Shown: positions 40,851-43,347 of the stretch, piece after piece
Layout of the letters: each line of letters opens with the position of its first letter
How positions within the stretch are numbered: the stretch's first letter is position 1
NCBI GenBank assembly: GCA_018920365.1
Contig: JAHLMM010000001.1
Coordinates: 70,449-133,627, forward strand
Reading direction: 5' to 3'
From: Candidatus Aenigmatarchaeota archaeon
Lineage (GTDB): Archaea; Aenigmatarchaeota; Aenigmatarchaeia; CG10238-14
DNA: 63,179 nucleotides
Position numbers and translations under genes: made by a program
Notes under the pieces: generated by a model
Database searches by the model: none
Told to the model about the DNA's origin: nothing
Seen by the model: only the letters and a program-made list of their open reading frames with translations

Positions 40851-40871
40851 AAATATAACAAGGTTATATTT
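40851..40871. promoter_or_regulatory. Palindromic operator-like site
   Basis: AAATATAAC-AAG-GTTATATTT directly before the HTH start codon and downstream of a TTTAAA box. Confidence 0.6.
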
Positions 40872-40872
40872 T

Positions 40873-41196
40873 ATGCTTACGACACCCTGCGAAACTGCAT
40901 CAAAATATGTGATACCGGCAATAAGAGCAAATGTAGCAAAATCTCTAACAAAAAATAAATATACACAAAAGTCCATTGCAAGAATACTCGGAGTAACACA
41001 ACCGGCTGTAAGCAAATATCTTTCAGAAAAATATGAAGGCAAATTAAAGTATATTGTTAATGATAAAACCATCAAAAAATATGCAGATCAGATTGTTGAA
41101 ATGATAATAAATGGGCAACCAGAAGAGAATATTAGATTAAGCATACTTGGCAGTTCTGCTAAGATCTTAAAAGATAACCCAAATGGTTTTTTATGA
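40873..41196 (+). CDS. HTH (XRE-like) transcriptional regulator
   Basis: TPCE...IPAIRA, TQ..IA..LGVTQPAVSKYL. Confidence 0.88.
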   Translation: MLTTPCETASKYVIPAIRANVAKSLTKNKYTQKSIARILGVTQPAVSKYLSEKYEGKLKYIVNDKTIKKYADQIVEMIINGQPEENIRLSILGSSAKILKDNPNGFL

Positions 41197-41206
41197 GGTG
41201 ATTTAA

Positions 41207-41815
41207 ATGTTTGAAAAGAAAATAGCAATTGATTTTGTAAAAGCAAAGCCTGAATTGCTTAAAATGGATGGCTTTTCTGAAAAGTCCATTTTGGAGCATT
41301 TAAAGCTGTACCAAGGCTATGTAAATAAATACAATGAGATAATGGAAAAATTGGATGCTTTGAGTATAGATGAAGCAAAAAATGGAAATGCGACTTTTTC
41401 AACAATAAGAGAATTAAAGGTTGAATTAACATTTGCAATAGGTGGAGTAAAAAATCATGAAATATATTTTAGCAATTTAGGAGGCAAAGGTGGTAAGCCT
41501 AATAGTAAATTACTGAAGCAAATTGAAAAAGATTTTGGGAGTTATGAAAAATGGGAGGCTGATTTTAAAGGTAGTGCACTATCAGCAAGAGGATGGGTGT
41601 GGCTTGCATGGGATAGAGATGCAAATATGTTAATGAATGTAATAGGAGATGCACAAAACACATTTCCAATTTGGAATGCAAAACCAATATTAGCTTTGGA
41701 TATGTATGAACATGCATTTTGGCTTGATTATCAAACAAATAAATCTGCATATATAGACGCCTTCTTCAAAAACATAGATTGGAATGATGTTTTAAAGAAG
41801 TTTGAAAAGGTATAA
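41207..41815 (+). CDS. sod: Fe/Mn superoxide dismutase
   Basis: H..LYQGYV, NHEIYF, DMYEHAFWLDY. Confidence 0.92.
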   Translation: MFEKKIAIDFVKAKPELLKMDGFSEKSILEHLKLYQGYVNKYNEIMEKLDALSIDEAKNGNATFSTIRELKVELTFAIGGVKNHEIYFSNLGGKGGKPNSKLLKQIEKDFGSYEKWEADFKGSALSARGWVWLAWDRDANMLMNVIGDAQNTFPIWNAKPILALDMYEHAFWLDYQTNKSAYIDAFFKNIDWNDVLKKFEKV

Positions 41816-41817
41816 TA

Positions 41818-41916
41818 ATGGAAAAATGTGATATTTGTGGAATTGAAATGAAAGAAGTTCATTGCAAAATAGTTTGCTTTAATTGTGGTTTTAAAAAAGA
41901 TTGTTCGGATATTTAG
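41818..41916 (+). CDS. 32-aa zinc-finger microprotein (HVO_2523-like pattern)
   Basis: MEKCDICGIEMKEVHCKIVCFNCGFKKDCSDI. Not in the ORF track. Confidence 0.8.
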   Translation: MEKCDICGIEMKEVHCKIVCFNCGFKKDCSDI

Positions 41917-41925
41917 GTGGAACAA

Positions 41926-41973
41926 ATGGATGGAAAAAAGAAAGGCTGTGGATGCGGTTGTGGTTGCTGTTAA
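41926..41973 (+). CDS. 15-aa Cys/Gly micropeptide MDGKKKGCGCGCGCC
   Basis: AGGTGG RBS 5 nt upstream; mixed synonymous Gly and Cys codons. Confidence 0.6.
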   Translation: MDGKKKGCGCGCGCC

Positions 41974-42593
41974 AATTTCAAAGCAACAACACCTTGTGAA
42001 GCATATTCTCTATAAGCCTTGTTAAAACCTGCTAGCAATAGTCTGTTTATTATTCCTTTTGGCAGATTTTTGCCATTTTTCGAGCCAGGGGATCCTGTAT
42101 AATGATACAATTTTCCTTGTGGTTTTAATATTCTATACAATTCTTTGTAAAATTCAAGAGAATACAATTCTGGAGCAAAACTAAATCTAGGCGGATCATG
42201 AATTATAAAATCAAAAAAACTATTTTTTAAAGATTTTACTGCAGCAAAAGAATCATTTATTGATAAAAATACATTGTTTTTTGAAAACAAATCAGACGAA
42301 TGTTTGTTCAATTTAGCTATTTTAATCATATTTTTATCTTTTTCAAATGTGAAAACCTGATAAGCATATCTTGATGCTAATATTGAAGTATAGCCAAGTC
42401 CACAACAAGTATCCAAAACTTTGCCTTTGATTTTACCAATTGCCTTCAATTTAAGAATTGTATCTGTTTTAGGATCAATTTTGTCAGTTCTATGCATCCT
42501 TATTCCTGATATCACAACAGTTGGCCATGTTTCAGTTTCAACAAGTTTGTAAAATTTTCTAGTTTCTTCAGAATAGAATTGTATATTTTCCAT
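41970..42593 (-). CDS. SAM-dependent methyltransferase (COG2521-like archaeal family)
   Basis: ISGIRMHR, VLDTCCGLGY, HDPPRFS.A.ELYS. Confidence 0.85.
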   Translation of the reverse strand: MENIQFYSEETRKFYKLVETETWPTVVISGIRMHRTDKIDPKTDTILKLKAIGKIKGKVLDTCCGLGYTSILASRYAYQVFTFEKDKNMIKIAKLNKHSSDLFSKNNVFLSINDSFAAVKSLKNSFFDFIIHDPPRFSFAPELYSLEFYKELYRILKPQGKLYHYTGSPGSKNGKNLPKGIINRLLLAGFNKAYREYASQGVVALKF

Positions 42594-42615: not shown

Positions 42616-43347
42616 CTATTTAGTTGTATTTGTCAATTGAAGCTTTTCTAATATCACCTTTTCAAAATCTTCAAATGGTCTAGATCCAACAATTCTTCTA
42701 TCATTAATAAAGAATGTTGGTGTTCCTGTTATCTGATATTGTTTGGATTCTTGCATTTCTTTTAAAATAATTTCTTTCATTGCACCGCTTTGCAAGCATT
42801 TATTAAACTCGGCTACATCCAATCCAATTTCTTTTGCATAATCATCAAAAAGACTTGGGCCTATTCTTCCCCATTGCTTCTGTCTGCTATAAAGCAACAT
42901 TGCATACTCTTCGTATTTACCTTGATCATAAGCGCACCTAGCTGCTTCTGAAGCTTTAAATGAAAATGCATGTTGTTCTGATGGTAATTCATAAAACACA
43001 AATTTTACTTTGCCTGCGTCAACATATTTTTCTTTTATCTCTGGATATGTCTTTGTATAGAAATCAGCACAATATGGGCATTGAAATTCGCTAAAAGATT
43101 TTATTGTAACAGTCGCGTCCTGGTTACCAACTGATGGCAGATCTGTTTTTATTGGTGTATATTGAATTTTTTCACTTTTTGTCAAAAAAATCACAGCTAT
43201 TATCAAAATAGGTATTGCAATAAACAGAGCCAATTTTTTAAAGTTAATTTTCTTAGTATTTGATTCTGTAGGTTGTGGCAATTGCTGCTGAATATATCTC
43301 ATTTTTTTCTTTTCTTTTTTGCTCAGCCTTTTCCCCATGGATATCAA
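42616..43347 (-). CDS. Membrane-anchored DsbA family oxidoreductase
   Basis: FSEFQCPYC, GTPTFFIN. Confidence 0.9.
   Translation of the reverse strand: MISMGKRLSKKEKKKMRYIQQQLPQPTESNTKKINFKKLALFIAIPILIIAVIFLTKSEKIQYTPIKTDLPSVGNQDATVTIKSFSEFQCPYCADFYTKTYPEIKEKYVDAGKVKFVFYELPSEQHAFSFKASEAARCAYDQGKYEEYAMLLYSRQKQWGRIGPSLFDDYAKEIGLDVAEFNKCLQSGAMKEIILKEMQESKQYQITGTPTFFINDRRIVGSRPFEDFEKVILEKLQLTNTTK

Follow-up and report, generated by a model that had tools for sequence, protein, structure and literature searches.

The 63,179 nucleotides of DNA analysed here, called the window throughout, come from the genome of a Candidatus Aenigmatarchaeota archaeon (752 kb in 19 contigs, 93.75% complete, 31.6% GC; the window is G000:C11:70449-133627) and contain a short operon whose last gene has only 15 codons. 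From 5' to 3' the operon consists of a helix-turn-helix (HTH) regulator, a superoxide dismutase (SOD), a putative zinc ribbon of 32 residues and the 15-codon peptide gene, after which a methyltransferase gene converges from the opposite strand. The genes flanking the locus are archaeal in kind (Spt5/NusG, L11, a Cbf5-type TruB-PUA protein and TIM), the relatives of one local protein carry the NCBI label Candidatus Aenigmarchaeota, from which the phylum name was taken, and the public sequencing runs that match window DNA are all labelled as hot-springs metagenomes. The features of the locus, in window positions, are the following.

40851..40871, no strand: inverted repeat AAATATAAC-AAG-GTTATATTT, the putative operator, with the core TATAAC-N3-GTTATA at 40854-40868
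40873..41196, plus strand: HTH regulator of 107 residues, first gene of the operon, recognised from weak HTH Pfam matches and from homologues
41207..41815, plus strand: Fe/Mn-type superoxide dismutase of 202 residues (Sod_Fe_C, Sod_Fe_N)
41818..41916, plus strand: putative zinc-ribbon microprotein of 32 residues MEKCDICGIEMKEVHCKIVCFNCGFKKDCSDI with six Cys, recognised from an NF041914 alignment, a profile search and an AF2 model
41915..41920, plus strand: AGGTGG, a Shine-Dalgarno-like site 5 nt ahead of the peptide's ATG that overlaps the zinc-finger stop codon
41926..41973, plus strand: 15-codon peptide gene encoding MDGKKKGCGCGCGCC, ATG to TAA, the last cistron, with homologues at the same position
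41970..42593, minus strand: class-I S-adenosylmethionine (SAM)-dependent methyltransferase, recognised from Pfam matches, the convergent 3' boundary, outside the operon

The genes are packed tightly: 2 nt separate SOD from the 32-residue open reading frame (ORF) and 9 nt separate that ORF from the peptide gene, which in turn overlaps the end of the methyltransferase gene by 4 nt, both stop codons lying within one TTAA. This bears out, base for base, the layout described in a first-pass annotation made from the letters alone, namely an HTH-sod pair followed after 2-nt and 9-nt gaps by a six-Cys ORF of 32 residues and a peptide of 15; the ribosome-binding site AGGTGG that it assigned to the peptide is present, and the methyltransferase does converge on the peptide's stop. 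In the window the zinc-finger and peptide ORFs share a frame with a single TAG between them. A readthrough fusion of the two was considered and rejected, since they lie in different frames in the related loci G003, G001 and L061 (G denotes genomes, L individual loci), and the shared frame looks coincidental.

The peptide MDGKKKGCGCGCGCC has a cationic, Lys-rich head and a (Cys-Gly)n-Cys-Cys tail. Five of its 15 residues are Cys (33%) and none is aromatic or His, a composition like that of metallothioneins, which combine a low mass with about 30% Cys and few or no aromatic residues. Composition alone is weak evidence for a gene, as 927 Cys-rich 9-mer windows occur in the six frames of the genome; 412 tiny ORFs stand behind a GGTG genome-wide, and 5 of these have at least four Cys. 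What lifts the peptide gene above chance is its retention at a homologous position together with substitutions of the coding type. The SOD protein was searched in 61 genomes, 23 of which gave a match, and in metagenome contigs, and the DNA after SOD was then inspected. The clade, defined by SOD proteins at least 73% identical, comprises 11 loci, in nine of which the downstream DNA is fully visible; the two left out of the count are G002, which ends inside SOD, and L062, which ends 110 nt past SOD and shows no peptide. In six of the nine a tiny homologous ORF occupies the same place, directly ahead of the stop codon of the convergent methyltransferase gene, and it is absent from G004, L058 and L059. 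A second blastn match within the same genome (L002) was dropped as an AT-rich chance match, and the four DNA contig runs examined gave no further allele of the peptide.

The six peptides are MDGKKKGCGCGCGCC in the window (ATG start), MDGKKKGCGCGSGCC in G003, GGKKTKTSCGCGCGCC in G001 (TTG start), MGGKKGKSSCGCGCC in L060, MGGKKGKSNCGCGCC in L063 and KGRKTKSECGCGGDCGCH in L061 (GTG start). They range from 15 to 19 residues and contain 4-5 Cys; the head is K/R-rich, and the tail has the form CGCG...C(C/H): the CGCG core is present in all six and the tail ends in CC in five and in CGCH in one, with the variants CGCGSGCC, CGCGCC and CGCGGDCGCH, the last of which gains a terminal His. Start codons and Shine-Dalgarno (SD) sequences differ from locus to locus and are nonetheless maintained, a GGTG core preceding the start in five of the six, and all length differences are whole codons, in multiples of three. 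Across the genome, 4-mers resembling an SD sequence precede 85 of the 424 long ORFs, against a background of 7.5%. The window and G003 genes differ at seven bases, six of them third positions, which amounts to five synonymous codons and one non-synonymous codon; L060 and L063 differ at five bases, four of them third positions. Pooling these two independent pairs, 10 of 12 differences fall on the third codon position (binomial against 1/3, about 5e-4, calculated by hand). The 15-codon ORF thus looks like a genuine gene whose frame is under purifying selection. The first-pass annotation had argued for such selection from the synonymous alternation of the Cys and Gly codons (GGC TGT GGA TGC GGT TGT GGT TGC TGT), and the comparison bears this out: the two small ORFs both prove real and conserved, the frame of the peptide being kept in relatives at these six of nine loci. 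Pattern searches of the kind that it had proposed gave matches in this genus alone. Of the 118 genomes searched in the order, two contain CGCGCGCC followed by a stop codon, with up to one mismatch (two control matches), and of the 371 searched in the phylum, two contain CGCGCC followed by a stop (no control matches); both times these are the window genome and G001.

Besides an action through its peptide, two other explanations of the conserved ORF were weighed. If the ORF were untranslated, constraint on DNA or RNA would have to account for it, for example a terminator of the minus-strand methyltransferase gene or a short G-rich element, and the complement of the Lys codons does form an oligo-T run directly past the methyltransferase stop in the window and also in G001. 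The concentration of differences at third positions of the peptide frame, the start codons and SD sites maintained in different sequences and the length changes in multiples of three all speak against this explanation, as does an RNA fold of the region no better than that of shuffles (z = -0.61) and an Rfam scan of the region that matched no RNA family, and we hold it to be very improbable. The ORF might alternatively be translated for an effect in cis, the peptide itself having no function: ribosome traffic could protect or terminate the convergent 3' end, on whose stop codon the ORF ends exactly in all six loci, or ribosomes could pause in response to Cys-tRNA. There is a precedent in mycobacteria, where, according to a published study (10.1101/834739), leaderless polycysteine ORFs act as cysteine-responsive attenuators, being 5'-proximal and controlling downstream cysteine-metabolism genes through ribosome pausing. 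These ORFs resemble the peptide gene in being unannotated, very short, Cys-rich and situated in operons. However, attenuators sit 5' of the genes they control, while the peptide gene is a 3'-terminal cistron with no gene after it on its strand; selection has kept its Gly, its Lys and the alternating pattern and not just the Cys codons; and the peptide is retained where the preceding zinc-finger gene has been lost (L060, L063). An effect in cis is, in our view, quite improbable.

The first-pass annotation also offered the precursor of a ribosomally synthesised and post-translationally modified peptide (RiPP) as an alternative; the peptide would then be matured, for instance by methylation or cyclisation, into a natural product. 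Neither this idea nor the suggested modification of the peptide by the neighbouring methyltransferase found support. Several classes of RiPP do typically start from short Cys-rich precursors, and a SAM methyltransferase does adjoin the gene. Yet a Pfam scan of the 24 ORFs between 34983 and 50396 (about 7 kb on either side) found no maturase-type family (radical SAM, YcaO, lanthipeptide, MNIO), and the 15 residues show no division into leader and core. The methyltransferase is convergent, its matches are generic (Cons_hypoth95, Spermine_synth and MTS in Pfam, class-I families only in NCBIfam), and it stays next to SOD at loci without the peptide (G004, L058); it is a bystander, and a RiPP is scarcely credible here. 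Beyond the methyltransferase, and syntenic with it in most loci of the clade, lies a gene for a membrane-anchored DsbA-like protein (42616-43347, minus strand; Thioredoxin_4, 2e-40; NCBIfam Rcas_1661 family thioredoxin-like lipoprotein, 1e-35); no link between it and the peptide emerged. Where the window begins, in G000:C11:70267-71920 (about 180 nt ahead of its first letter up to its position 1472), off-frame translations are crowded with runs of CGC and CSC, a sign that the coding sequence there may be a repetitive, G/C-rich repeat.

The peptide's neighbours place it in a setting of oxidative stress. The SOD carries both Pfam domains above the gathering score (Sod_Fe_C, 1.4e-27, 96.2 bits; Sod_Fe_N, 3.4e-7, 31.1 bits), and its best NCBIfam match, superoxide dismutase [Mn] (2.2e-36), lies below the equivalog cut-off. 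Near its N-terminus the HTH protein bears an invariant Pro-Cys-Glu, and its Pfam matches all fall below cut-off (HTH_37, 1e-4; HTH_3, 1.3e-4; HTH_5, 5e-4). Six homologues were found in total, one of them, from Candidatus Aenigmarchaeota, named an ArsR family regulator at NCBI. The HTH gene is present in all six peptide-bearing loci; in G004, where the peptide and the zinc finger are absent, no HTH gene was found within 1.5 kb upstream of SOD. In two further genera of this family (L031:1501-1954, L032 and L033:1135-1590; L034:921-1363) homologues of about 110 residues, 38-41% identical and with the Pro-Cys-Glu among the invariant residues that they share with the window's protein, stand directly upstream of a zinc-finger gene with no SOD between, whereas in the window's genus (g1) the two genes flank SOD, and from this order of genes the pairing of HTH and zinc finger appears to predate the operon.

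The zinc finger is itself a member of a larger group. Its six Cys and one His (C4, C7, H15, C16, C20, C23, C29) are conserved family-wide, and it aligns with positions 2-30 of the 33 in NF041914 (HVO_2523 family zinc finger protein; E 2.6e-6) at 27.2 bits against a curated cut-off of 60, which makes it a distant relative and not an equivalog; a Pfam scan of the ORF matched no family. A profile made from three sequences of the genus was matched, at E<=1e-3, by 452 cluster representatives in a set of 1.84 billion proteins, and the relatives inspected have 38-188 residues with the domain mostly C-terminal and the consensus CxxCG-x7-HCKxxCxNCG(F/Y)xRDCSDP. An AF2 model (pLDDT 84.3) shows three short strands, and the best Foldseek match is the TFS4 ribbon 7oqy_Y (TMq 0.76, rmsd 0.8 over 27 columns), with an E of 0.45, the domain being very small; the Csl4 ribbon offers a further likeness of fold, and sequence searches of PDB gave generic zinc-ribbon and rubredoxin-knuckle similarity, none of it significant. 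By sequence and predicted fold, the 32-residue ORF is thus a putative zinc ribbon and a distant member of the HVO_2523 zinc-finger microproteins, with which it shares a single domain of about 30 residues and two CxxC knuckles, the alignment covering 29 of the 33 profile positions. It differs from them in its score (27 against 60 bits) and in the pairing of its gene here with those of a SOD and an HTH regulator. Deletion of HVO_2523 in Haloferax volcanii is pleiotropic and affects growth on glycerol, biofilm and swarming, according to PMC6562870.

Only four of the nine clade loci have the zinc finger, and since the peptide persists without it at L060 and L063 the two are separable. The putative ribbon is a protein in its own right, probably serving as a co-factor of the HTH regulator or as a factor related to Fe-S metabolism. 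In another family of the order a zinc-finger gene lies directly upstream of a gene of the FeS_assembly_P (DUF59) family (L035:1486-1895, L036:1193-1602).

Ahead of the operon, the two arms of the palindrome, each of 9 nt and 100% complementary, abut the start codon of the HTH gene. The palindrome is invariant in the five loci that could be aligned, in three of which the ATG overlaps it, and the HTH genes of other genera likewise have a start that overlaps the same palindrome or a degenerate form of it. The full palindrome occurs once in the genome (expected 0.05), while its core TATAAC-N3-GTTATA has three sites (expected 0.41), which precede the HTH-SOD operon, a gene for an AhpC/TSA peroxiredoxin and a gene for a SufC-like ABC ATPase; the sites beyond the operon are in G000:C2 (L268:2200-2214) and G000:C12 (L267:2192-2206). 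Core sites number 5, 1, 6 and 3 in the related genomes G001, G002, G003 and G004 (relatives' sites, L269-L283); the reversed control gave 2, 0, 1 and 1. The core sites lie directly upstream of HTH-SOD in G001 and G003 and of SOD itself in G002 and G004, upstream of peroxiredoxin (Bcp; AhpC/TSA) and of a B12-binding radical SAM gene in G001 and G003, of SufC in G001, G003 and G004 and of SufB in G001 and G003; a site upstream of Cdc6 in G004 is perhaps due to chance. A looser ATAAC-N3-GTTAT stands before the HTH gene of genus g4 as well as before SOD in L059 and L062, and the motif is degenerate in g8. We infer an autoregulated repressor-operator system that controls an oxidative-stress and Fe-S regulon, to which the peptide would belong by virtue of its presumed co-transcription with the operon behind the shared palindrome. 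The earlier suspicion that the unit is part of an oxidative-stress system is upheld in so far as the palindrome before the operon recurs before peroxiredoxin and suf genes. A weaker paralogue of the HTH protein occurs in G000, G001, G003 and G004, and either protein is a candidate for binding the palindrome.

Two further genes were seen beside core sites or suf genes in the relatives. A Cys-rich ORF of 49 residues (MHCIVCGDNL...; L271:1349-1495, G003) begins 6 nt from a copy of the core and is maybe another small zinc-finger member of the regulon. A protein with a GGDEF domain (diguanylate cyclase, E 1.9e-35) is encoded divergently from sufB in G001 (L280:622-1452) and G003 (L281:1595-2473); GGDEF proteins are unusual in archaea.

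Tiny ORFs of a similar design occur in bacteria. A scan for CGCGCC followed by a stop codon in one genome per prokaryotic species returned at least 119 loci, many of them off-frame or chance matches. Among the matches listed are several tiny ORFs of 15-25 codons behind strong SD sites, from metagenome-assembled genomes (MAGs) of Actinomycetes (MSCCEGGCGCGCGCC, MCELSCCEGGCGCGCC and MRATSCECGCGCGCC), from Thermoleophilia of the Gaiellaceae (MPSCCDEGCGCGCGCC), from Trueperaceae (MKRSADCDCDCGCGCGCGCC) and from Ktedonobacterales (MSCCDGPDCCPCPECGSGGCGCGCC). Twelve bacterial loci were picked by hand among the matches listed, and in the eight with flanks of at least 1 kb an ArsR-family gene (HTH_5, E 1e-9 to 1e-19) is adjacent in six, five times divergent and once directly upstream, a MerR gene is directly upstream in one, and neither regulator is found in one (Gemmatimonadota), a count that overstates independence because the loci were hand-picked among at least 119 and include close relatives. 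The seven loci with a regulator (L156, L189, L162, L192, L198, L159 and L191) fit the smtB-smtA logic of metallothionein control, and by this analogy their ORFs are likely to encode mini-metallothioneins. They share with the archaeal peptide gene its length class, a strong SD, the (Cys-Gly)n-Cys-Cys C-terminus and a small regulator of the metal type next door. In contrast to it, they have acidic or neutral heads (MSCCEGG..., MPSCCDEG...), stand alone or diverge from a repressor and have bona fide ArsR/MerR regulators, while the archaeal gene is found at the end of a SOD operon.

The same scan also found the CGCGCC tail on larger proteins. It is carried by a P-type ATPase (L148:1504-3021), a thioredoxin-fold protein of the Thioredoxin_3 family (L209:1504-1803) and a 4Fe-4S ferredoxin (L175:1504-1884), the latter two each encoded directly after an ArsP_1 permease gene, and it is also C-terminal on GAPDH and on a methylmalonyl-CoA-mutase-like protein. 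In Clostridia (MAGs of Acutalibacteraceae and Oscillospiraceae) proteins of 44-60 residues combine a hydrophobic N-terminal helix with a Cys/Gly/Asn-rich tail that ends in CGCGCC (L195, L210, L164, L248, L251 and about 20 more among the matches listed). An NCBIfam scan of six of the bacterial Cys-rich small proteins matched no family apart from one spurious TatA match on a transmembrane helix.

Taking these strands together, we propose as our best reading that the peptide may be a thiolate buffer of metals and reactive oxygen species (ROS), a minimal stress protectant resembling a metallothionein, and we would place this reading midway between belief and disbelief. The HTH protein, with its invariant Cys, would bind the palindrome and let go under oxidative or metal stress, whereupon the peptide would be made together with SOD. 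Its 4-5 closely spaced thiolates (CxC, CC), probably those of several peptides jointly, could then bind Cu(I), Zn/Cd, Fe or As(III), or alternatively be oxidised sacrificially, and either event would hold metal-catalysed radical chemistry in check, with superoxide itself being removed by SOD. The Lys-rich head may keep the peptide soluble or near anionic surfaces. A search of the genome, at its 93.75% completeness, found neither the GCS2 nor the Glu_cys_ligase family of glutamate-cysteine ligases, and the CDF family was not found in it either; that a cheap thiol peptide fills the gap left by these missing transport and ligase families is plausible. A specifically arsenic-related role was dropped, the Acr3/SBF and ArsB families not having been found in the genome. 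Of the first-pass idea of a chelator or thiol buffer of the phytochelatin or metallothionein type, the metallothionein and thiol-buffer part gives the best fit to the composition and to the bacterial ORFs next to ArsR and MerR genes, and phytochelatin is left as an analogy only, the peptide being a ribosomal alpha-peptide.

Several observations weigh against this proposal. With an HTH_5 score of 20.3-20.9 bits against a cut-off of 22, the window's HTH protein falls short of a bona fide ArsR/SmtB regulator, and true HTH_5 genes are present elsewhere in the same genome. The bacterial parallel, from loci chosen as described above, is therefore an analogy between short low-complexity peptides. Of the 371 genomes searched in the phylum, those with the peptide all belong to one genus, and the peptide is dispensable, as G004, L058 and L059 live without it. 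A P1B-ATPase with an HMA domain is encoded in the genome, which means that metal export is already present. The CxC spacing cannot wrap a single tetrahedral ion, so oligomeric clusters must be assumed, and part of the conservation could reflect transcription termination, through the minus-strand oligo-T tract that the A-rich Lys codons form past the methyltransferase stop. Finally, the context of SOD, peroxiredoxin and Suf suits a redox or Fe-S role no less than a metal sponge.

Each of these two roles can be stated as a reading of its own. The peptide could be a low-molecular-weight surrogate for glutathione, that is, a redox buffer or sacrificial scavenger that is recycled by thioredoxin-type enzymes and has no specific metal role. 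Its apparent co-transcription with SOD, the operator it has in common with the peroxiredoxin gene and the lack of a detected glutamate-cysteine ligase family would all agree with this, and the Cys-Gly unit is, as established chemistry has it, the business end of glutathione. We nevertheless consider it unlikely: vicinal and CxC thiols favour intramolecular disulfides and metal clusters over free buffering, one variant has acquired a metal ligand in its terminal His, the analogous bacterial ORFs adjoin sensors of metals and not of redox state, and stoichiometric buffering demands high abundance. Several peptides could instead hold a [2Fe-2S] or [4Fe-4S] cluster, or released iron, and pass it to Suf. 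The putative operator common to sufC, sufB and the radical SAM gene points in this direction, as do the relative of the zinc finger directly upstream of an FeS_assembly_P gene in another family and the existence of a ferredoxin with a Cys-rich tail ending in CGCGCC. The suf genes themselves, however, show no linkage to the peptide gene, no Fe-S carrier of such a form is known, and the bacterial analogues indicate ions sensed by ArsR and MerR; we regard a carrier role as rather unlikely.

Among known systems, a metallothionein-like protectant would stand nearest to the metallothioneins proper, such as the fungal Cu-thioneins and the smtB-smtA system of Synechococcus. Like these, the peptide is very small, one-third Cys, rich in Gly and in CxC and CC motifs and free of aromatic residues, and its gene adjoins a small HTH regulator by which it is apparently controlled, with a link to metal or oxidative stress. 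It is unlike them in its 15-19 residues with 4-5 Cys, for which a cluster needs several chains, in its polybasic head and in its place in an archaeal SOD operon. The short Cu-thioneins of fungi such as Neurospora crassa have about 25 residues, and to our knowledge the archaeal peptide is well below the length of any described metallothionein; judged by eye, it also shows no sequence relation to the bacterial SmtA/BmtA family, being shorter than SmtA and free of the His residues that SmtA has. With phytochelatins and glutathione it has in common repeating Cys units that end in or contain Gly and a presumed thiol-based protection against metals and ROS, but theirs are enzymatic gamma-glutamyl bonds and the peptide has no Glu. 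Tiny (Cys-Gly)n peptides, metallothioneins of archaea and micro-ORFs linked to ArsR were all looked for in the open-access literature, and no paper on any of them turned up.

Should the peptide be produced and either bind metals or scavenge oxidants, no gene-encoded molecule of the metallothionein kind would be smaller, and as far as we have searched it would be the first in archaea. A symbiont-type genome of 0.75 Mb would then cover its thiol and metal protection with 48 bases. A peptide of 15 residues is cheap to synthesise, which makes its chemistry directly testable, and the operator, the HTH regulator, SOD, peroxiredoxin and Suf together offer a testable regulon in a phylum without genetics. 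The gene also adds to the evidence that functional ORFs of fewer than 20 codons are systematically missed by gene callers. More broadly, we speculate, doubtful as the generalisation is for now, that in genome-reduced archaea without pathways of the glutathione type the protective thiol may be encoded directly, as a (Cys-Gly)n micropeptide made on the ribosome, and that a single HTH protein sensing redox state or metals may induce it along with SOD, peroxiredoxin and Suf; together with the bacterial ORFs, such peptides may form a widespread, unannotated class of metallothioneins of fewer than 20 residues.

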